DNA from: Escherichia coli
GTDB taxonomy: Bacteria; Pseudomonadota; Gammaproteobacteria; Enterobacterales; Enterobacteriaceae
Strand: one strand, 5' to 3'
NCBI RefSeq assembly: GCF_029227855.1
Contig: NZ_CP074356.1
DNA: 64,000 nt
A program made the position numbers and the translations under genes. Position 1 is the stretch's first letter; the number at the start of each line of letters is the position of its first letter. Positions 3,982-52,342 of this stretch are shown here, in pieces. Below the pieces are notes generated by a model. It was not told the DNA's origin, did not search any database, and saw only the letters and a program-made list of their open reading frames with translations.

Positions 3982-4286
3982 GATTGTGCTCCTTTTGAAA
4001 GATGTCAGTAAAATTAACACACGTTGTGAATGTCGTGTGTCCGGTAATGCGTTTTTACGGCAATAATGCCTACTTGAAATTGTACATATTTGTACTACAC
4101 ACTTTTAAATAAAGCGCCAATGAAAACGTTAACTTGCAGAATATATTCTTCGCCAACATGCCATTAAGAAAACATCAAGTTCCCGGCTTGCCAATTTGTT
4201 AACGCCCATTATAGTTATTCTTGCCCTCACTAAAAATTTTCATCCGTAATTACCCCCAATAAAAATCCATTCTGGAGACGCTTAAG

Positions 4287-6263
4287 ATGCAGCTTAATCA
4301 TATCGTTAAAAGTCTGCTAATAACGGGATTATTCACCACCAGTTCTTTACCTCTCCTCGCGGCGGAAGCTCCTAAAGACGCCACCGCAGCCACGCAACAA
4401 GCAAACAATTTACTCTACAACCAGTTGCCGTTTGCCGATAACACTGACTTTACTGATGCCCATAAAGGTTTTATTGCCCCTATCCCTCAAGACGTGATTA
4501 AGGGCGAACAAGGGAATGTTATCTGGGATCCACAACATTACGCTTTTATCAAAGAAGGCGATAAAGCCCCTGATACGGTGAATCCGAGTTTATGGCGTCA
4601 GGCGCAACTGATAAATATCAGCGGGTTATTCGAAGTAACTGAAGGTGTCTATCAGATTCGCAATCTCGATCTATCAAATATGACCATCATTGAAGGCAAA
4701 GAGGGTATTACCGTCGTTGATCCCCTTGTTTCAGCAGAAACAGCCAAAGTGGGTATGGATCTCTATTACAAAAATCGCGGCAAAAAACCGGTAGTGGCGG
4801 TTATCTATACACACAGTCATGTCGATCACTACGGTGGTGTTCGTGGCGTAATTGATGAAGCTGACGTTAAATCAGGCAAAGTTAAAATCTATGCGCCAGC
4901 CGGATTTTTGGAGGAAGCCGTTTCCGAAAACATCATGGCTGGCAATGTTATGAGCCGACGAGCCAGTTATATGTATGGCAACTTATTGAAACCTGATGTT
5001 AAAGGCCAGGTGGGGGCTGGACTGGGAACGACTACTTCAGCAGGAACAGTCACGTTGATTGCTCCTACTAACTACATCACCAAAACCGGACAAAAAGAAA
5101 CTATTGACGGGTTGACTTATGATTTCCTGATGGCGCCAGGTTCTGAAGCGCCTTCTGAAATGCTGTGGTTTATTGAAGAAAAGAAACTGATCGAAACCGC
5201 TGAAGATGTCACGCACACCCTTCATAACACCTATTCGCTGCGTGGGGCTAAAATTCGCCAACCGCTGCCGTGGTCAAAATATATTAATGAAGCTCTCAAT
5301 TTGTGGGGTGATAAAGCCGAGATTATTCTCGCTCAACATCACTGGCCAACCTGGGGCAACGATAACGTGGTCAAACTGCTTAAAAGCCAGCGTGATTTGT
5401 ATCGTTACATCAATGATCAAACTCTGCGCATGGCTAATCAAGGGATGACCCGTGATGAAATTGCCGCAAACTTTAAACTGCCCTCTTCACTGGCTAACAC
5501 CTGGGCGAATCGCGGCTATTACGGTTCGGTAAGTCATGACGTGAAAGCAACTTACGTGCTTTATCTCGGCTGGTTTGATGGTAACCCCGCGACGCTTGAT
5601 GAACTGCCGCCAGAAGAAGGCGCAAAAAAATTCGTCGAGTATATGGGCGGTGCTGATGCCATTTTACAGAAAGCCAAACAGGATTATGACCAGGGTAATT
5701 TCCGCTGGGTTGCCCAAGTTGTTAGTAAGGTGGTGTTTGCCGATCCAAACAACCAGGCAGCGAGAGATCTGGAAGCTGATGCGCTTGAGCAGTTAGGCTA
5801 TCAGGCTGAATCTGGGCCGTGGCGTAATTTCTATCTCACTGGTGCACAGGAATTGCGTAATGGCGTACAAAAATTACCAACACCAAATACTGCCAGCCCA
5901 GACACCGTGCGTGCGATGACGCCGGAGATGTTCTTTGATTATCTTGCCGTCCATATTAATGGTGAGAAAGCGGCAGATGCCAAAACCGTGTTGAATTTCG
6001 ATTTTGGTGAAGATGGCGGCACCTATAAAGTGGAGCTTGAAAATGGTGTTCTCAATCATACCGCTGGTGTAGAGGCTTCGGATGCTGATGCCACTATCAC
6101 TCTGTCTCGTGATGTATTGAACAAAATTGTACTGAAAGAAGAGACGCTGAAAGAAGCCACGGCCAAAGGAGATGTCAAAATTACTGGCAATGAGGAAAAA
6201 CTCAACGAGCTGTTAGGTTATATGGATAATTTTGAATTTTGGTTCAATATAGTGACACCATAA
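4287..6263 (+). CDS. Secreted YjcS/SdsA1-like alkyl (aryl) sulfatase, metallo-beta-lactamase fold
   Basis: 658 aa; N-terminal signal peptide (LLITGLFTTSSLPLLAAEA); THSHVDHYGG metal-binding motif; RBS GGAGA upstream. Accessory relative to the K-12 gene order as remembered. Confidence 0.8.
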   Translation: MQLNHIVKSLLITGLFTTSSLPLLAAEAPKDATAATQQANNLLYNQLPFADNTDFTDAHKGFIAPIPQDVIKGEQGNVIWDPQHYAFIKEGDKAPDTVNPSLWRQAQLINISGLFEVTEGVYQIRNLDLSNMTIIEGKEGITVVDPLVSAETAKVGMDLYYKNRGKKPVVAVIYTHSHVDHYGGVRGVIDEADVKSGKVKIYAPAGFLEEAVSENIMAGNVMSRRASYMYGNLLKPDVKGQVGAGLGTTTSAGTVTLIAPTNYITKTGQKETIDGLTYDFLMAPGSEAPSEMLWFIEEKKLIETAEDVTHTLHNTYSLRGAKIRQPLPWSKYINEALNLWGDKAEIILAQHHWPTWGNDNVVKLLKSQRDLYRYINDQTLRMANQGMTRDEIAANFKLPSSLANTWANRGYYGSVSHDVKATYVLYLGWFDGNPATLDELPPEEGAKKFVEYMGGADAILQKAKQDYDQGNFRWVAQVVSKVVFADPNNQAARDLEADALEQLGYQAESGPWRNFYLTGAQELRNGVQKLPTPNTASPDTVRAMTPEMFFDYLAVHINGEKAADAKTVLNFDFGEDGGTYKVELENGVLNHTAGVEASDADATITLSRDVLNKIVLKEETLKEATAKGDVKITGNEEKLNELLGYMDNFEFWFNIVTP

Positions 6264-6275
6264 ATTTACTGCATA

Positions 6276-6301
6276 CCGGGCAGGTATCCTGCCCTTTTTT
6301 G
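6276..6301 (+). terminator. Rho-independent terminator after sulfatase gene
   Basis: GC stem gggcagg-tat-cctgccc followed by T-run (tttttt). Confidence 0.7.
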
Positions 6302-6309
6302 GTTAAAAA

Positions 6310-7407
6310 ATGGCTGAACGAAGAAAAACTCATCACTCATGGAAAACCCGCCGCAATATGGTTATTCGCGGCATGACGATTAGTTTGCCATGGTTTGCTT
6401 TTATCAATGTCAGTTTTGCATTGATAATTTTGCTGCGCCGTGTTCTGTTTAATGACCTTACTCCACCCTGGTTAAATGAAAAAAGCCTTATACATTCTAT
6501 TGATATATCTGCAACGGGTATTCTGCTGATTTGCAGTGGTTTACTACTCATCCCTCGGCAAAAAACATTACCTATCCAGGTGCTATTAGTTGCCCTGAGC
6601 CTGCTATGGTCATGGTGTAGTTATCACTTTATTGCGTACTGGACGCTGCAGTTTGCTTATCCACTATGTGTATTATTAATGCTTAGTGGCGTTGTCGCAA
6701 TTTATTTCCATACCCCATCATTGCTCGCATTTGTCATTCCCTTATGGTTCACCACTCCAATAGCGAGTCTTATGCTTAATCAACAGATCAATATTCATTT
6801 TGCTGTTGTATGGTGTATTTTTTCACTGGCGCTATATGGTGGGCGACTCATTTTGTTACGTTGGTTTGAAGAAGCATGGGTACAAAACAGTTATAACAAC
6901 CAGTTAATTAATCGCCTTGATGCATTAGCACATCGTGCTCCTTTAACTGGGATAGCAAACCGACGTGCAATGAACAGTATCTTACACGACACGATGGATA
7001 ACGGCGGGTCATTTGCTCTTATTATGCTGGATGTCGATTTTTTTAAACGTTACAACGACACTTACGGGCATCCTGCTGGGGATCGTTGTCTAATACAAGT
7101 TGCCGACGCTCTACAGCGTTCAACTCGCCAGTCGGAGGATGTTGTTGTCCGTTATGGTGGCGAAGAGTTTGCCATCATACTTTTTAATGCAACATTGCCG
7201 GAAGCAGAGACGGTAGCAGCCAGAGTGAAGCAAGAACTTAAACTGGCAGCTATCCCACATCAGGCATCTGCTGTTAATGCATTCGTTACGGTTAGTCAGG
7301 GGATTACCTGTTCTGCTCCCGCAAAAACGGCTGAACAAATTATTTCAGATGCCGACGCTGCGTTATACCGGGCGAAAGAAAGTGGGCGAAATCGATGGGC
7401 TTTATAA
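6310..7407 (+). CDS. Membrane-anchored diguanylate cyclase (GGDEF domain, intact GGEEF active site)
   Basis: 365-aa ORF; N-terminal half has multiple hydrophobic helices, C-terminal half has the RYGGEEF motif. Exact start uncertain (alternative ATG at 6358). Confidence 0.75.
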   Translation: MAERRKTHHSWKTRRNMVIRGMTISLPWFAFINVSFALIILLRRVLFNDLTPPWLNEKSLIHSIDISATGILLICSGLLLIPRQKTLPIQVLLVALSLLWSWCSYHFIAYWTLQFAYPLCVLLMLSGVVAIYFHTPSLLAFVIPLWFTTPIASLMLNQQINIHFAVVWCIFSLALYGGRLILLRWFEEAWVQNSYNNQLINRLDALAHRAPLTGIANRRAMNSILHDTMDNGGSFALIMLDVDFFKRYNDTYGHPAGDRCLIQVADALQRSTRQSEDVVVRYGGEEFAIILFNATLPEAETVAARVKQELKLAAIPHQASAVNAFVTVSQGITCSAPAKTAEQIISDADAALYRAKESGRNRWAL

Positions 7408-7480
7408 GCATTAGGGGACTGGACAGATTACGTCTCTCCTCGCTTAACAAGGGCTGACGGAGGGTAATAATTGTCTATAG

Positions 7481-8032
7481 CTATCTTCTTAGCGATGTCT
7501 TTCTGGTATCACATTGGGTCGGTGCAATTATTTTTCCTTTAATACCCATTATGTTAAGAAATTCAGAAACAGCTGTAATCTCATTGTTTTTTTCATTCGT
7601 CTTGATCTTCCAAGGAATCTGACTGTGCATTATTGAGAACACACTAATAACGTGAATCGCTCCCTTGCGACGACTCTTGTCATAAGAGTACCGGAGCGTT
7701 TTTCCATCAATTGCAATGACGTCTTTATCATCTGAAGAATGGCAGTCAAGCATCCAGTTAATAAAGCACTCATGAAATTTTTCAGGACTGATACAGGATA
7801 CAACTCTGGCAATGGTATCGTGAACAGGAATACCATTATCAAAATCACCATATTGCTTCAAAAAATCGAGATGTGTTTCCCCAAAATCCTCTATATCTTC
7901 CCAGCCTTCTGCACCCGAAATAATGGCACAAATAGTCAACAGTAGAATATCCGATAATTTATGTTCCACTTTCCAGGCTTGTCTGTAATCGGGGGTAATA
8001 GAAATATGTTCCATCAATTTTTTAAATTCCAT
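7481..8032 (-). pseudogene. Truncated H-repeat-associated (ISAs1-family) transposase, N-terminal 5' fragment
   Basis: 183-aa ORF about 85 percent identical over roughly 170 aa to the N-terminus of the intact H-rpt ORF at 14075..15211, then diverges and terminates; shared upstream flank as well. Confidence 0.8.
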
Positions 8033-8617
8033 TTTGTTCTCCTTAATTATGTAAGGAGTATTTGATCATGTATAAGCAATAAAAAACAGCTTTAGGTAAT
8101 GAGGAATATCTCAATTTTTAAACATAAAATGCGAATTATTTAGTACAAAAAAGCAGCGTTACGTGATCTTTCCGTGGATCGTCAAATTGTTCGAGAGAAA
8201 ATACCAACATGATGGATTTTACTGTAAAAGTAATGTCGTAGTTTAAAAACTCATCATCCGGTAAAGCCTTGTGGGGCGTGGGCTTTCATACTTTTACCCT
8301 GATGTCTGCTATACGCCGGACACCCTTTACGTAGCATTCGGAATTCACCCGTAAATTTATCACGGCGGTATCACGAAACCTCCGGTTCTGATGCCGCTTA
8401 GGACTAACGACACGTCAACACAGGTTCGGGTTTATTCATTTCACTGTATCTCATATAATCTGAGCACTCCCCCTGCGCTCGCTACTATGACTCTTTACCA
8501 CAGCAACCGGGGTTGTTTGGGATCGGCTTTCAACAGCAGATCCCGGTGGCTATTGCAAGTAAGTCTACTTTCCACATCAGTGTTACTGACACAGAAAATA
8601 ATGAGTTATGATCCTTG

Positions 8618-9103
8618 TCATATTTTTAATATAGCCCCATGAGCTATAGGATCAAAACCTTCTAACCATGAGGTGTTTTTATCGAATAATGCACCTGTTA
8701 TATTTATATCGCCATATCTATCACATAATAAATTAGCGCCACATAAGTCAGCACCAGAAAAATTTGAATCTTTAACGTCTGCATTGCAAAAGGTTGAATT
8801 AGTTAATATAGCACCCTCAAAGTTTGCACCTATTGACCTTGAATTACTAAAGTCACTTCCAGTGAAATCTGAGTTATTAAGAATAGCGTTCATCAGAGCC
8901 GCATTGCGAAAGACAGCATTTCTAGTTGATGTATGTTGAATCATTACATTTCTTAAATGGGAATTTTCAAATTTCGCCCCATCAAGACAATAACCATTGA
9001 GGATGGCACGATGTAGATCCATCCCGCTAAAATCATATCCAGCAAGAGTGGTACTATCTATATCAAGAAATTTATTGGTTATTAAAAACGCGATTCTTAT
9101 CAT
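8618..9103 (-). CDS. Pentapeptide-repeat protein, predicted Rhs immunity protein (positional equivalent of K-12 ydcD)
   Basis: 161 aa; about 20 consecutive A(D/N)(L/F)xx-type pentapeptide repeats ([15 protein letters not shown] ... [15 protein letters not shown]); start codon overlaps the rhs stop in ATGA arrangement; AT-rich. Confidence 0.8.
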
Positions 9104-12100
9104 CTATTCCCCCAATCATCTAACTCCGGAAAAATTTGGCTAAACGGATATAGTGGTGCCGATAATGGACGCGTACCTGGCCGCTCAGGAGGAAGTTTAT
9201 CACATAACAGACCCGCAACCATCCTGTGATTACCATTAACAATCACATTCCCATCCATATCAACCGGTGGTGCTCCACTACCATCTTCCAGCATTTGTAC
9301 GTAGTGAGCTACTACGGGTACTGAGACTTTTTGTTGTACTGTCAACAAGGGACTGTTGGCCACAACCATCCTGATGTTTTCAGGTGTCGCAGGTAAACAT
9401 TTAGTCTTCTCTTGACTAAAGGTATCATCCCACAATTTTGTTAAACCCATCACTGCCTGTTGTCTGTATTTATCCATGGGGTCAGCAATCAACCAAGATG
9501 GACCTGACTGCTCTATGGAATCTTCTCCGGAGAGACCCAACGGATCTATCTTAGTAGTTGGATTCAATGGATACTGATACAGGTTCCATGCACCTCTTAG
9601 CCCAATGGGATCCTGGGTGATATACCGCCCCTGCAACGGGTCATAGTACCGGTTGCGGTTATAGTACAGCCCCGACTCCTCATCATACTGCTGCCCCGGC
9701 AGACGGTACGGCTGTTGCAGTTGCTGCGCGCTGGTTTCGCCCAGCAGGTTTCCCCACTCGTCATACTCCCCCTGCCACGCCGTTTCCCCTACCGGGCTGA
9801 TGAGCGCCTGCGGCAGCCCCCGGTGGTCGCAGTGGTAAAGATGAAGTGTCCTCTCCGGGATGTATTCCGCCTCCATCTGGTTTTTCATCTGTTCCGCCGT
9901 CAGCCCGCACTGCTGAAGCCATGCCTCACTCTCCGCACTCACCGCACCCGCGCGCAGTTCCCGCTCCAGCCTCCCCAGCATCACCGACAGCTCCGCCGGT
10001 AGCGTCACCCCCGTGTCCTCCTGCAACACCTCCGCCAGACTCCGGTGCCGCGCCTTCGCCTGTTCACCATTCTCTGTTTCGATTCTGATGAGCGGCGTGA
10101 AGCTCCCCGGCTGGTATACCGTCTGGATACGCGTGGTGCCGGTCTGTACCGTCGTCAGCCTGTCACCGTCCCACCCGTACCAGGTCTCCTCCGGTTTACG
10201 CGACAGCGACATCCACCCCGTCAGGTCACGCTCCCGCCGCCACACCCGTTTCCCCGTCCGGCGGCCCAGCGGGTCATAGAGGTAGCGGCTCTCCACCTGT
10301 GGTTCGCCGTGCTGTATCCGCGTGTAGAACACCAGGCGGTGCTGGCTGTCGTAATGGTAGTGGTGGGTCCGCTCGTCGTGCATCCGGATAACCCCTTCCG
10401 GGATACGATCCGTCTTCTCCGCCAGCCTGCCGTATTCATCGTGGCGGTAGACATAGTGCGCATCCTCCGCGATGCGGTTATCCGGCCACGCCGTGAAGGT
10501 GCTGTCCGGGTGCAGTTCCGGGTCCGGCAGCCGGTTTCCTGCCGGGTCCGTCGCATACGGGATATCGATATCCAGGTTCGCCGCCGTGGTGTGAACGCCC
10601 GTCAGTCTTCCCGTGTCGCTGTAACGGTACTTCCGGCTCTCCTGCGGGCCGCTGATGCGCACCAGTTGCCCGTTATCGTTCCACGTATACTCACGGTCAA
10701 GCTGCGGAAGGTTCAGGTGCCTGCTCCGGAGCTGCCCTGTGAGGGTGTACGCCATGGCCTGTTCGTACCCCGCTGTACTGCCCGCCCCGCCGAAGCTGCG
10801 GGCCGTCTCACGGTGCAGCCGGTCCCGCGTGTACTCGACCAGCGGCGTTCCGCCCAGCTTCATCCCCGCAAGATAACCGCTGCCATACGTCAGCCACTCC
10901 ACCGGCGGCAGACCGTCCGGCTCCTGACGGGTCGCCAGCCCCTGTTCGCTGTAGACGTGCCTCGTCTCATGCTCCCACAGCATCTCCCCCGTCTCCTGGT
11001 TCTCCACCGTCTGCCGTTCGCCCGTCAGGCGGCCTTTATCGTCATAGCCGTAGTGGACCGCCACACGGTGGCCTTCGCTCAGGTGGCTGATTTCTGTCAG
11101 CCAGCCGTGGTCGTCATACTGCCACTGCTCCGCCGGGTCGCCGTTCACCGTCCGGTGCGTGATGCGCCCGGCGTCATCGTAGTACCACTGCGTGACCTGC
11201 CCCTCATCCTCGCTGCGGATGAGCTGCCCTGTGGCGCTGTACCGGTAACGCTGTGTCCTGCCGTCAAAGCCGCGCTGCTCCGTCAGCCTGTCCACCGGGT
11301 CATACCGGAACGTGGACTGGCTGCCGTTCTCGTTGGTCAGCACGGTGATGCGCCCGGCGGCGTCATACTCCATGCTGCGCGTCAGTCCGCCCTGCGTGGT
11401 GCTGACGGCCTTTCCCCACGCATCATACTGTGTCTCACTCCGGCTGCCGTTCGGGGCAATGATAGCGGTGAGGTCGCCTGCGGCGCTGTACTCATAACGG
11501 GTTTCACGTCCCTGCGCATCCTTCTGACTGACCAGTTGACCACGCGGGTTATAACTGCTGTAAGTGCTGATGCCTTCCTCCCGGTGAACCGCCGTCCTCT
11601 GACCGTACCGGTCGTATTCATACCGCGTCGTGTACCCTGAACAGTCCGTAAATGCCTGAAGCTGACCGTACCGGTTTCGCGTTATTCTCCGCCTCACCCC
11701 GGTTCCGTCTTCCACCGCACAGGGCAGGCCACTGCGGGAAGAATCATAAAACCAGCGCGTAATGTTACCGTTGCGCGAGACCTCTTCCGCCAGCCTGCCC
11801 TGACGGTCATATTTCCGGCTGCGGCGCAGCCCGTCCGGGTACGTCACTGACGTCAGTTGCAACTGGTTGTTGTAACCATACCGTACCGTCCTGCCGTCCG
11901 GCAGTATCACTGAAGTCAGCTTTCCCGACGCCATATGCAGCCGGTACTCCGTCCGCCGTCCCGCCGCATCCGTCTGCGCCTTCAGCCTCCCCGCCTCATC
12001 ATACTCGCTGCGGGTGATGCTCCCGTCCCCATGCTCCTTCTTCACCACCCGCTTCAGGCCGCCCTCGCCCTCCGTGTACAGCACCTCCCGCCGGTTCAGG

Positions 12101-13311
12101 CTGTCCGTGATGGTCACGCGGTCCTGCCCGTACTCAAAGCGGTAGTCCAGCCCCTCCGGGTTGACCTGCTCCGTCACCCGACCGGTATCATCATACCGGT
12201 AGCGGCTCTCCGGCCTCCCCGCATAATGGTGCGCCACCATCCGCCCGGCGTGCTCCGCATCATAAGTAAACCCGCGCACCTGCGTCCCGCTGCGGTCATA
12301 CACCGCCCGCAGTTCTCCGCTGGCCGTGTACGTGTAGCGCGCCAGCGGCGCAGTCGGCAGTTCATCCAGGTATGCCAGGTCGTGTGTCAGCCATACCGCC
12401 TCCAGCCGGATACCGTTATCGGCACCGTACTCTGTACCGGTGGGCAGCGTGTCGGGGAAAACCTGAGAAGAGGAAACAGAACGGGGACTGGCCGGAGAAG
12501 ATAAAGAAGAGGCGCGCTGTTTACGGAAGGCTTTCGCCCGCTGCGCCTGTGTGGTCAGCGCCAGATGAAAACGGCGGCCCGCGCCGTCCGTCACCCCCGT
12601 CACCGCGCCCGCCGCTTCCCCCTCTGCCGCCCGGTGGAAGGCCAGCGTCCGCCCGAAGCTGTCCACCACGCCCGTCAGCACCCGGTATGCGGGCGGCTCC
12701 GGCGGCAGCACCTCGTCCGCCTCCGGCACCCGCTCCGGCCAGCCGAGTATCCACCACGGCCCCTGAAGGCTGTTTGTCGCCAGGTACACATGCGGGCTTA
12801 AGCGGAGACTCTCCGGCAGCACCTGCCAGAGCGCGCTTAGCGGCTGCGAACTGTGCTGCTCCGCCACCCCGCCCCTTGCCAGCCAGAACGACTCGCTGCG
12901 GCTGTAGCTTATCTCGCCGGGAAACAGCGGCTCAAAGTGAATGCTCCTGCCGCCACTGTCGTTGAGTATCAGTTCCCGCTCATGAACCTGTAAGCGGATA
13001 TCGAAGGGCGCTTTCCAGCCGGGACCAAACACCCCCACCGGCGCGGGTGTTCTGGTCCGGTAGCTGCTGTAGGCGCGGGAAAGAATAAACGGCAACGGGC
13101 CGGGCAGCGCAAGATCCGTCTCGCCCGGCAGCACCTTCGCACCCAGTAGCGGGTTCACCGGGTTACCCTTCTGCTCCTCCACCGGGCTGTTGGGACACAC
13201 CGAGCAGGCCACTCCCGTCGGCGCACCTATCAGCACCCCCGCTGAACCCTGCACAATATCCAGTCCCTTGCGGGTCATATCGCCCTGTCGCGCCGCCGGT
13301 TTTCCGCTCAT
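9100..13311 (-). CDS. Rhs polymorphic toxin, full length (PAAR-like N-terminus, YD-repeat core, variable C-terminal tip with ParB-like motif)
   Basis: 1403 aa; N-terminus [11 protein letters not shown]; long GC-rich YD-repeat core; core-end DPxGL motif (..DPIGL..KIDPLGL) followed by an AT-rich roughly 143-aa tip (about 9100..9531). Confidence 0.9.
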
Positions 13312-49604: not shown

Positions 49605-50320
49605 GGTTTTTCAAATGCGCCTATAAGGCTCTCTTACCAGCCGCGCCCTAACAGGCGCACACGATCTGACATTTGCATCCAACTTCGTTACTTACGGCCC
49701 GTAAACGGGCTGCCCGGATAGGGAATCGATAACTGCTCTCCCATTTTATCCTCTTCAAGCTGGTGCTTTGTGTAATCCTGTATCTTCGCCGTGTTCTTAC
49801 CCACTGTATCGACGTAGTACCCTCTGCACCAGAACTCCCTGTTCCTGTATTTGAATTTCAAATCACCAAACTGCTCGTAAAGCATCAGACTGCTTTTCCC
49901 TTTCAGATATCCCATAAACCCGGATACGCTCATTTTAGGCGGGATCTCCACAAGCATATGGATATGATCTGCACAGCATTCAGCTTCCAGAATCCGTACG
50001 CTTTTCCACTCACACAGCTTTCTCAAAATACTGCCTATTGCTCTACGCTTCTCTCTGTAGAACACCTGTCTTCGGTATTTTGGCGCAAAAACTATGTGAT
50101 ATTTACAGTTCCATCGGGTGTGCGCTAAGCTCTTTTCGTTCCCCATTGGGACCCCCTTTTGATTTCTTGTTTGACACTTGCAGTTGCCAGACCGCAAGGT
50201 GTTTTAACAAATCAAAAGGGGTTTTAATAACAGGCTCAAAGCTGAAAGCTTTCCGGAACCCCCAGCCTAGCTGGGGGTTTTCTGTGCACAAAAAAGCCGC
50301 CTGGCTGGCGGCTTAGGAAA
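49605..50320 (-). mobile_element. IS200 insertion sequence (IS200/IS605 family)
   Basis: About 0.71 kb element with 459-bp tnpA, perfect palindrome near the tnpA-proximal end (aacccccagcctagctgggggtt, about 50260..50283) and a second hairpin; boundaries approximate. Confidence 0.75.
49688..50146 (-). CDS. tnpA: IS200 Y1 (HUH) transposase TnpA
   Basis: 152 aa starting MGNEKSLAHTRWNCKYHIVFAPKYRR; catalytic HxH (DHIHMLVEIPP) and Tyr region; near-identical to IS200 TnpA as remembered. Confidence 0.9.
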   Translation of the reverse strand: MGNEKSLAHTRWNCKYHIVFAPKYRRQVFYREKRRAIGSILRKLCEWKSVRILEAECCADHIHMLVEIPPKMSVSGFMGYLKGKSSLMLYEQFGDLKFKYRNREFWCRGYYVDTVGKNTAKIQDYTKHQLEEDKMGEQLSIPYPGSPFTGRK

Positions 50321-50686: not shown

Positions 50687-52342
50687 CTAACTCATCACGC
50701 GGTCGTCAACATACTGACGTTTATCCGGCGCTGGCGGGAAATACTGATACAGCCATGTTTCACTGATAGCGTCCCCCTGACAACGCAGATACATCCGCAT
50801 ATCGACCGGATCAGTGGAGTCCGAAGTCGGATACCAGTCAAACTGAATACGATAACCATCAATTGGTTCAATATAGAGAATTTCGATTTGCTTCGCTTCC
50901 CCACTGGAAAGCGTAATCACCGGCTCAATGCCTTTTGGCGCGGCAGCTTTCAGATCACCACCAACGAAATCGACGGCAAAACGACGCGCCCATTTTTCGG
51001 GATAGTGTTCACCTGGAGCCCAACCTTCCGGGAAACCGCCCATGCCGGTACGCGTCGCCATAACGCGCGCTAATGGGCAATGAACAGGCGGTTGCGCGCT
51101 CCAGTACAAACGATACTGGAATGCAAACTCATCACCCGCTTTTACAGCTTTTTCTGGCTGCCAGAAGCAGACAATGTTATCCAGCGTTTCACCCGTAGTA
51201 GGGATTTCCATCAGGCCGATGGTGCCCTTACCCCACTTGTTACGCGGCTCCACCCACAGACTTGGGCGTTTGTTATACCAGCCCATAATGTCCTGATAAT
51301 GAGAGAAATCACGATCCAGTTGCAATAAACCAAACCCTTTCGGGTTGTTGTCGGTGTAAGCATTGAACTGCAATTTTTGCGGATTGTTCAGCGGACGACA
51401 AATCCACTCGCCATTGCCCCGCCACATGGACAGACGATCTGAGTCATGGATTTGCGGATGAATGGTGTCGCACATCCGACGTTCATTAGTACCGCAGCTG
51501 AACATGCTGGTCATCGGCGCAATGCCCAGCTGTTTAATGTCTTTGCGCGCATACAGGTGATTTTCCACATCCATAATCACCTGACTTTTCTCACAATGGA
51601 TAGTGAACTTATAGGCACCAGTAATGCTGGCGCTATCGAGCAACGCATAAACGGTAAAGGTGGTTGCCCCCGGTTTTACCGTATCAAACCAGAAGGCAGT
51701 AAAGTCGGGGAACTCTTCTTTACTGTCGGTGTAAGTGTCGATCGCCAGGCCGCGAGCCGACAAACCGTATTGATATGTATCATCAACCGCGCGGAAATAA
51801 CTCGCGCCGAGGAATGATACGACATCACGGCGCGCCAGTTCGGGGGCTTTAAACACGCGAAAACCGGCAAAACCGAGATCGCTTTGCCCTTCTAATTGTT
51901 TGGTATCAACACCCGCATCGTTGTATTTGAACAACTCCGGGCGAAAGTGAATTTCACGCGCCAGATGTGTTGCGGGATCAACAGAAAACATACGAACGCG
52001 GCGGCGGAATCCCATTCCCATATGGAAGAACTGAGCGTCTAGTTGACGGTTCTCAACGTTATGCCAGAGCGATTTTTCGGCGTCGTATTGAATACTGTTA
52101 TAAGCCTGCGGCGTCATTGTCGCCAGCGTGTCAGGTAACGGACGAGGCGCACCACGCCACGCGGTTTGCGCTAAGTCGTGCGCCATTGACTGTAGAATGG
52201 AGAAGTCAAAACGTTGGGTTTGCCCGTCGGCAATATCAGAATCTGCCGCGAATGCCGCCTGAGAAAAAAGAGAAGCAATGCCGCTGGTACCGCACACGGC
52301 GGCCATAGCCATTGAACCTTTAATAAATCGTCTACGATCCAT
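50687..52342 (-). CDS. opgD: Glucans biosynthesis protein D (periplasmic, Tat signal)
   Basis: 551 aa; twin-arginine signal [10 protein letters not shown]. Confidence 0.9.

Follow-up and report, generated by a model that had tools for sequence, protein, structure and literature searches.

The window analysed, a 64-kb stretch of E. coli DNA, comprises a locus with the gene order nhoA (minus strand), yddH (plus), pptA (minus), alkyl/aryl sulfatase (plus), diguanylate cyclase (plus), ISAs1 remnant (minus), pentapeptide-repeat gene (minus) and Rhs (minus). The features of the sulfatase-cyclase unit are as follows.

4188..4215, plus strand: predicted sigma-70-type sulfatase promoter, TTGCCA-16 nt-TATAGT (10/12 matches, the best site in 4000-9000)
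4287..6263, plus strand: alkyl/aryl sulfatase gene, 658 aa, metallo-beta-lactamase type (Pfam Lactamase_B, Alkyl_sulf_dimr, Alkyl_sulf_C; RefSeq 'alkyl/aryl-sulfatase')
6278..6294, plus strand: terminator stem-loop GGGCAGG-TAT-CCTGCCC (sequence, folding, rarity test, cross-genus alignment)
6295..6300, plus strand: T6 run (U-tract)
6301..6309, plus strand: 9-nt spacer GGTTAAAAA, A-rich, without a Shine-Dalgarno sequence (sequence, anti-SD scan)
6310..7407, plus strand: MASE5-GGDEF diguanylate cyclase ORF, long form, 365 aa (ORF, Pfam), 6310 being the probable true start
6358..6360, plus strand: ATG of Met17, the RefSeq/PGAP start giving a 349-aa form
6373..6375, plus strand: ATG of Met22, the third candidate start

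The N-terminus of the sulfatase resembles a signal peptide and the enzyme is probably exported. The product of 6310-7407 is, by its domain content, a MASE5-GGDEF diguanylate cyclase: MASE5 (PF17178) covers residues 25-206 with an E value of 2.9e-43 and GGDEF (PF00990) residues 210-362 with an E value of 2.5e-46, and the RYGGEEF motif, which conforms to GG[DE]EF, is invariant among the homologues. The ATG codons of Met17 and Met22 are in frame with ATG 6310, and since MASE5 begins at residue 25 both domains would be intact from any of the three starts. The 1.7-kb sulfatase-cyclase junction is accessory and was detected in 443 of 5426 complete E. coli genomes (~8 %), APEC O2-211 and MS 69-1 being among the carriers. 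A literature search on the cyclase gene and the sulfatase-cyclase pair returned nothing relevant, but did not extend to the papers that compare and name the GGDEF proteins of E. coli; those on nomenclature reportedly list a further accessory cyclase, DgcY, which may or may not be the present gene.

The TAA stop codon of the sulfatase occupies 6261-6263 and the stem begins 14 nt further on. Its arms, GGGCAGG (6278-6284) and CCTGCCC (6288-6294), form a perfect 7-bp duplex with 6 G-C pairs around the loop TAT, and the T6 run abuts the stem directly. The folding energy of the hairpin is -13.5 kcal/mol in context and -12.1 kcal/mol for the bare stem, with a pair probability of 0.97-1.00 in a 460-nt ensemble, and no terminator-like site within 4000-9000 ranks higher. 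With the quality class defined by a perfect stem of 7 bp or more, 5 or more G-C pairs and a minimum of 6 T among the 8 positions that follow, 5 distinct sites were found in the window versus 0.06 per dinucleotide shuffle; the exact hairpin pattern occurs once versus 0.02 expected. A G+C-rich stem-loop, an abutting U-tract and a position 3' of the stop codon on the same strand are all present, and by sequence criteria the hairpin with T6 is a canonical, non-random intrinsic terminator. The preliminary description, which had placed a gggcagg/cctgccc hairpin and a T-run ahead of the cyclase ATG, is borne out by the sequence, the folding and the rarity against shuffles. The terminator is unidirectional, since the opposite strand has no T-run; a bidirectional terminator was ruled out on this ground and because no convergent gene is present. 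A repeated element of the REP/BIME type was likewise ruled out, the hairpin being single-copy in the window.

The distance between the terminator and the cyclase is short, as originally noted, but the T-run does not end at 6301: its six T end at 6300, 6301-6302 being GG, and the gap to ATG 6310 is 9 nt instead of 8 (15 nt when counted from the stem). For the other four terminators of the same quality class the next same-strand ORF lies 89-1529 nt away versus 9 nt here, in a small sample.

The A-rich spacer, present in all Escherichia alleles compared, offers only GGU at the optimal spacing for an anti-SD interaction. The absence of an obvious Shine-Dalgarno sequence, also noted before, was confirmed and extends to all three candidate ATGs, the best anti-SD duplexes reaching -2.2 kcal/mol for 6310, -3.3 kcal/mol for 6358 and -2.2 kcal/mol for 6373. 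The accessibility of the mRNA did not discriminate among the starts (mean unpaired probability 0.41, 0.33 and 0.29 for 6310, 6358 and 6373, respectively).

An internal start of the cyclase had been put forward as one explanation of this arrangement, and part of the evidence agrees with it. In every RefSeq/PGAP record checked the cyclase starts at Met17 (6358), the Met17-Val18 pair is invariant in 23 of 23 homologues, and in Leclercia, where the N-terminal extension has been lost, the cyclase begins at the equivalent of Met17, 4 nt past the hairpin, this being the only start available. Met22 is not conserved, many homologues having Leu or Ile there. Codon-level conservation of the 16 codons upstream of Met17 nevertheless favours 6310. 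An open, ATG-initiated N-terminal extension is found in the homologues from Citrobacter, Enterobacter, Lelliottia, Salmonella, Hafnia and Pantoea (46-63 % identity), with the shared pattern M-x-x-[KR]R...W-x-x-[RH]-x-x-MV, and in the Enterobacter group the W-P-T-R codons vary at third positions only (CCG/CCT/CCA, ACC/ACC/ACG, CGC/CGT/CGT). Among Escherichia alleles pS in the extension was 0.30-0.43 versus a pN of 0.07-0.10 in two of the three pairs, pN being about equal to pS in the third (16 codons, hence very low power), and the difference in extension length in one allele (E69) stays in frame. In E. mori and E. hormaechei the long-form ATG has an SD-like AAGGA ahead of it, and in Salmonella aagg/gaggg; the long form is also the one chosen by Prodigal-type calls in metagenomes (P0002). 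Taken on these comparative grounds, ATG 6310 is likely to be a used start and the RefSeq start is probably a misannotation, 16 codons too short. The short form could still be real, or a second product, since Met17-Val18 is invariant, Leclercia uses Met17 and PGAP picks it; dual initiation from 6310 and Met17 is possible.

The -10 region of the predicted promoter, TTATAGTTA, is invariant across five genera in an alignment that includes Enterobacter, Lelliottia and Leclercia. We propose 4188-4215 as the promoter of the whole sulfatase-cyclase unit. The best indirect support for the cyclase being normally driven from there is that the promoter core still precedes the cyclase in two lineages, E. 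mori (L090) and L096, which lost the sulfatase independently. A consensus scan, which is blind to weak, activator-dependent and alternative-sigma promoters, found no sigma-70-like promoter in the 57 nt between the hairpin and 6358 or overlapping the hairpin. Neither the scan nor inspection by eye gave acceptable hexamers for a leaderless start at 6310, 6358 or 6373, for TGGTTAAAA as an extended -10 or for an UP element made up of the T6/A6 run, and these options were dropped; sigma-32, sigma-54 and sigma-E-like readings of TTGAAT...CACCAT were dropped by eye, the spacing or core bases being a misfit.

The suggestion, also made at the outset, that a promoter is embedded in the 3' end of the sulfatase gene or in the terminator did not gain support: no good sigma-70-like site was found there and the synonymous sites are average. 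No synonymous constraint was detected in the last 30 sulfatase codons, where codon identity was 0.37-0.63 versus 0.42-0.66 for the whole gene; this stretch ranks between the 33rd and the 73rd percentile of windows, and Salmonella, the control with divergent genes, behaves alike. A promoter at this position is further disfavoured because its transcripts must still pass the terminator.

In E. coli, Lelliottia, Leclercia and E. hormaechei the sulfatase and the cyclase follow each other in tandem at a distance of 40-66 nt, and in the last three the pair is located between tynA and feaB. In Salmonella enterica subsp. indica the two genes are divergent and share a common intergenic region of 285 nt. 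Such conserved pairing is the usual signature of co-regulated genes. In Hafnia and Pantoea the cyclase stands alone behind a long upstream region, and the Salmonella cyclase also has a long upstream region; in all three the cyclase presumably has its own promoter, and dependence on the sulfatase promoter is therefore not universal.

The sulfatase has been lost at least four times with the cyclase kept. In E. mori a deletion joins the sulfatase promoter to the cyclase about 60 nt before the SD-equipped long-form ATG, and the hairpin is lost. L096 still has the promoter, the hairpin and the final 50 codons of the sulfatase. In lineage L097, which has kept the hairpin, a ParE toxin-antitoxin pair stands in place of the sulfatase, and Citrobacter carries the hairpin and 36 nt of the sulfatase end behind yddH; neither of these two has kept the sulfatase promoter. 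That the hairpin survived the loss of the sulfatase in Citrobacter, L096 and L097 suggests that it may do more than end the sulfatase transcript.

All tandem lineages carry a G+C-rich hairpin 5-14 nt past the sulfatase stop codon. The hairpins of Escherichia, Citrobacter, Enterobacter and Leclercia align as one homologous element, GGGC(A/G)G...C(T/C)GCCC. When the stem pairs of E. coli were projected on nine sequences, 95 % of the cells could pair versus 52-64 % with the partner slid, and two stem pairs show G-C/A-U compensatory changes. Among Escherichia alleles that differ at 16-50 % of synonymous sites the stem is identical at all 14 positions, in contrast to the loop, the 14 nt ahead of the stem and the distal part of the spacer, which vary. 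Judged by this alignment, the inter-cistronic hairpin is ancestral to the sulfatase-cyclase module. The geometry, initially called unusual, may be regarded so for Escherichia but not as a peculiarity of the window, a hairpin 4-45 nt before the cyclase start being a trait of the family. The element itself is of an ordinary kind and its geometry is mildly unusual.

The tails of the hairpins read UUUUUUGG in E. coli, GUUUUAC in Citrobacter, CUCUCUUC in Lelliottia, UCAAGGAA in E. hormaechei and AGAU in Leclercia. The first eight tail bases include 5-6 U in the Escherichia alleles (T6 in E. coli, 5 in the others) and 4 in Citrobacter; the tails of Leclercia and E. hormaechei have 1-2 U, and that of Lelliottia is C/T-rich with 4 scattered U and no U-run. 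It is in the tail that the lineages differ, so an old hairpin carries a canonical U-tract almost only in Escherichia and, in a weak form, in Citrobacter. In Enterobacter, Lelliottia and Leclercia, where a long G+C stem is followed by a U-poor tail, the main function of the hairpin is probably that of a stabiliser or a weak terminator; the full U-tract of Escherichia would imply stronger polarity.

From the anatomy, conservation and synteny of the locus and the retention of its promoter we infer co-transcription, a leaky terminator and the start codon of the cyclase. The flanking genes are co-oriented and their adjacency is evolutionarily conserved, as is required of an intra-operon terminator. 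In the model that we hold with middling confidence, the hairpin and T-run would serve both as the sulfatase terminator and as a leaky internal terminator of a sulfatase-cyclase operon, keeping the cyclase scarce. Transcription would begin at the conserved promoter 4188-4215, and most transcripts would stop at 6300 to give a stable sulfatase mRNA. A minority would read through and carry the cyclase, which would be translated poorly, most likely from ATG 6310 in its A-rich context lacking a Shine-Dalgarno sequence, some initiation at Met17 being possible. The cell would thereby make much sulfatase but little of the membrane-bound c-di-GMP synthase. Among the native intrinsic terminators of E. 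coli the read-through fraction ranges from 0.004 to above 1 (PMC9023263). Against the model, the perfect stem with U6 may leave very little read-through. Regulated read-through had been among the options listed in the preliminary description; read-through is the best of those options and agrees with the tandem synteny and the promoter retention, whereas its regulation is unsupported, since neither an antiterminator nor a known cis-regulatory RNA was found.

Of the other readings, the one that treats the cyclase as an independent unit assumes full termination and a weak or activator-dependent promoter of its own that overlaps the T-run/A-run or the first 48 nt of the long ORF, with a start at Met17 or Met22. 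We consider it unlikely. It would fit the uniform PGAP start at 6358, the invariance of Met17-Val18, the Leclercia gene with Met17 as its sole start and the solitary cyclases of Hafnia and Pantoea with their long upstream regions. Many E. coli GGDEF genes are, moreover, RpoS-dependent with poor -35 elements, which is in keeping with a promoter of this kind; dgcX and yneF are examples (PMC4287979). However, no -10/-35 pair with more than 7/12 matches exists in the 57 nt from the T-run to 6358, the starts at 6358 and 6373 lack a Shine-Dalgarno sequence as well, and the 16 upstream codons are conserved as protein with synonymous-only variation in homologues, an in-frame ATG with no intervening stop being kept in Escherichia, Citrobacter, Enterobacter, Salmonella, Hafnia and Pantoea. 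A rather improbable reading is that the gain of the U-tract in Escherichia insulated the cyclase from its sole promoter, leaving a near-silent, cryptic gene that drifts toward loss. The U-tract is indeed specific to Escherichia, the cyclase evolves much faster than the sulfatase (identity 78 % vs 95 % within E. coli and 46-50 % vs 85-88 % between genera), frameshifted, truncated or partial cyclase copies exist and the ISAs1 remnant lies directly downstream. The cyclase is nonetheless full-length in 438 of the 443 carrier genomes, and the hairpin, the U-tract and the A-rich leader are all kept among diverged alleles. The dN/dS of 0.15-0.24 among Escherichia alleles, which diverged while already carrying the terminator, indicates purifying selection, and the cyclase should therefore be expressed somehow.

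The hairpin could also be an attenuator whose efficiency answers to some signal, such as an RNA or protein acting in trans or a ribosome reaching the sulfatase stop codon 14 nt upstream, so that cyclase output is gated and not just lowered. Conservation of the hairpin across genera, its survival of sulfatase loss and the 5-14 nt between stop codon and stem in all tandem lineages speak for such conditional read-through, and a terminating ribosome could interfere with the folding of the hairpin because this distance is short. We find it quite improbable, as no alternative antiterminator pairing was found for either stem arm: the competing duplexes reach -7.1 to -9.7 kcal/mol against -12.1 kcal/mol for the stem, and the best of them lies more than 100 nt away in translated sequence. 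The loop and the flanks are unconserved, the 46-nt spacer is too small for a leader peptide or an aptamer and the region 5900-6700 gave no Rfam match at E<=1; a riboswitch or other known cis-RNA was ruled out by the lack of a match and of an antiterminator. A more far-reaching version, to which we give a very low probability, regards the hairpin as a conserved gate of the cyclase that, with the gain of the U-tract in Escherichia, became a switch set by the sulfatase ribosome trailing RNA polymerase. It draws on the compensatory evolution in four genera, the position 4-45 nt before the cyclase start and the survival after sulfatase loss. The resulting circuit would be analogous in outcome to SiaA/D of Pseudomonas aeruginosa, where SiaA/D-dependent aggregation is induced by SDS (PMC4768041); if it were true, c-di-GMP synthesis would report on sulfatase translation or export, linking alkyl sulfates or detergents to biofilm. 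Least probable of all is a promoter within the terminal ~60 nt of the sulfatase gene with the hairpin as a 5' leader element, a stabiliser or attenuator, of a cyclase-specific mRNA. The weak -10-like hexamers TATAGT (6248-6253) and TAAATT (6261-6266) and the Citrobacter locus, which retains ~36 nt of the sulfatase 3' end and the hairpin with the rest deleted, would agree with it, but the -35 elements are poor or off in spacing (7-9/12 matches), TATAGT is lost in other alleles (TATTGT, CATTGT, GATGGT), the last 30 codons lack excess synonymous conservation, the transcripts would meet the terminator within 20-40 nt, and E. mori has lost the whole segment and kept the cyclase.

The dosage of diguanylate cyclases decides the commitment of E. 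coli to biofilm. A link to pathotype behaviour has been made for accessory cyclases, DgcX among them (PMC4287979). For reporter or complementation constructs of the present cyclase, the DNA to be included hinges on the strong terminator, the missing ribosome-binding site and the probable dependence on the sulfatase promoter. The comparative series provides a natural gradient for the evolution of operon polarity, from the U-poor stabiliser of Enterobacter through the full terminator of Escherichia to the hairpin loss and promoter fusion of E. mori, and the conserved pairing with the sulfatase hints at the signal sensed by MASE5. Current concepts are left unchanged; the locus is of mild interest for its tight geometry, the stabiliser-to-terminator series, the probable systematic misannotation of the start and the conserved pairing.

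The operon design favoured here, a leaky terminator between the sulfatase and the cyclase, is already known, and the case is a further example and not a new mechanism. In the rpsU-dnaG-rpoD operon of E. coli an internal terminator precedes dnaG, which has a poor ribosome-binding site, and this organisation is experimentally established. The resemblance lies in the succession of a highly expressed gene, an intrinsic terminator and the gene for a low-abundance enzyme with weak translation signals reached by read-through; the genes are unrelated, and the sulfatase-cyclase arrangement is deduced from comparative genomics. The trp and pyrBI attenuators and riboswitch platforms likewise place a terminator hairpin just upstream of a same-strand start, theirs lying 20-30 nt before the first structural gene, but they need an antiterminator fold and a leader peptide or aptamer, none of which is present here, and the upstream sequence in our case is the end of a 658-codon gene and not a leader.

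DgcX of EAEC and O104:H4 is comparable: it too is an accessory and horizontally mobile GGDEF cyclase, its N-terminal domain passes through the membrane several times, and a minority of E. coli strains carry it. Its gene, located at attB beside lambdoid prophages, shows very strong expression (PMC4287979), and the protein is of the MASE4-GGDEF type (PMC10459773); identity of the present gene with dgcX was ruled out, a MASE5 protein encoded in the nhoA-yddH-pptA region being set against a MASE4 protein encoded at attB beside a prophage. In ABC-importer operons internal terminators with a long GC stem and a U-poor tail set transcript ratios, for instance 3' of the genes for substrate-binding proteins (PMC9045158). 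There too a GC-rich stem-loop follows the gene of an abundantly needed extracytoplasmic protein and precedes a same-strand gene for a membrane protein. The E. coli sulfatase-cyclase version differs in being short and canonical, with a full U6 and 9 nt to the start, and in that partial termination is reasoned from comparison, whereas the hairpins of Enterobacter, Lelliottia and Leclercia have exactly the long-stem, U-poor-tail form of the importer operons.

The diguanylate cyclase with MASE5 and GGDEF domains is started at Met17 (ATG at 6358) by RefSeq/PGAP in all the records opened, to give a protein of 349 aa. The comparative codon evidence suggests that the true start is at 6310, 16 codons upstream of the annotated one, which, if true, would mean a systematic misannotation across approximately 440 genomes. 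The T6-GGTT-A6 sequence (6295-6310), which begins with the U-tract of the terminator hairpin separating the cyclase from the upstream alkyl sulfatase gene, forms an inverted repeat by itself, and the minimum-free-energy structure predicted for 6230-6400 has the U-tract paired with the A-run just 5' of the start codon. On read-through transcripts such predicted pairing could act as a weak mask of the cyclase start.

The cyclase of Leclercia (L086, 2961-3003) is devoid of the N-terminal extension. The hairpin at this locus has a 9-bp stem (11-bp as folded), an energy of -20 kcal/mol and no U-tract, and the ATG equivalent to Met17 is placed only 4 nt 3' of it, so the ribosome-binding region is buried in the stem or abuts it.

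The cyclase borders a variable island. Of the features listed below, the first three directly follow the cyclase, and the two terminators lie elsewhere in the window:

7481-8032, minus strand, frameshifted remnant of an ISAs1 transposase
8618-9103, minus strand, pentapeptide-repeat ORF overlapping the end of the Rhs core protein gene
9100-13311, minus strand, Rhs core protein of 1403 aa, with further Rhs sequence beyond
50259-50285, plus strand, strong terminator, back to back with the next
50287-50313, minus strand, strong terminator

The pentapeptide-repeat ORF overlapping the Rhs end likely represents a toxin-immunity arrangement. The two terminators, both within 55 nt, constitute a convergent pair between the ORFs 49763-50128 (plus strand) and 50687-52342 (minus strand).

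The sulfatase has been deleted with the cyclase kept on at least four independent occasions (L090, L096, L097, L005, L006 and L095), and the end-points of the deletions differ: in one case the promoter became fused to the cyclase, in others 50 codons or 36 nt of the sulfatase were left, and in another a ParE toxin-antitoxin pair took its place. In E. coli OkiPb01695 the locus is decayed: most of the sulfatase has disappeared and only part of the cyclase is left, adjoining an intact ISAs1 as well as a reverse transcriptase of a group II intron. Of 444 copies of the sulfatase-cyclase junction, one was plasmid-borne.

The two partners have evolved at very different rates. The sulfatase (4287-6263) retains 85-88 % identity across genera and 95 % among E. 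coli alleles, whereas the corresponding values for the cyclase (6310-7407) are only 46-50 % and 78 %; despite this fast divergence its dN/dS is approximately 0.15-0.24.

Across Enterobacteriaceae the alkyl sulfatase gene forms a conserved pair with that of the MASE5 diguanylate cyclase (4287-7407 in the window; L082, L084, L086 and L087), the two being arranged in tandem or divergently depending on the lineage. This conserved pairing is a hint that the signal perceived by MASE5 may be alkyl sulfates, detergents or products of these. In Pseudomonas aeruginosa SDS induces c-di-GMP-dependent aggregation via SiaA/D (PMC4768041); the outcome would parallel that proposed for the sulfatase-cyclase pair, although the proteins are unrelated.
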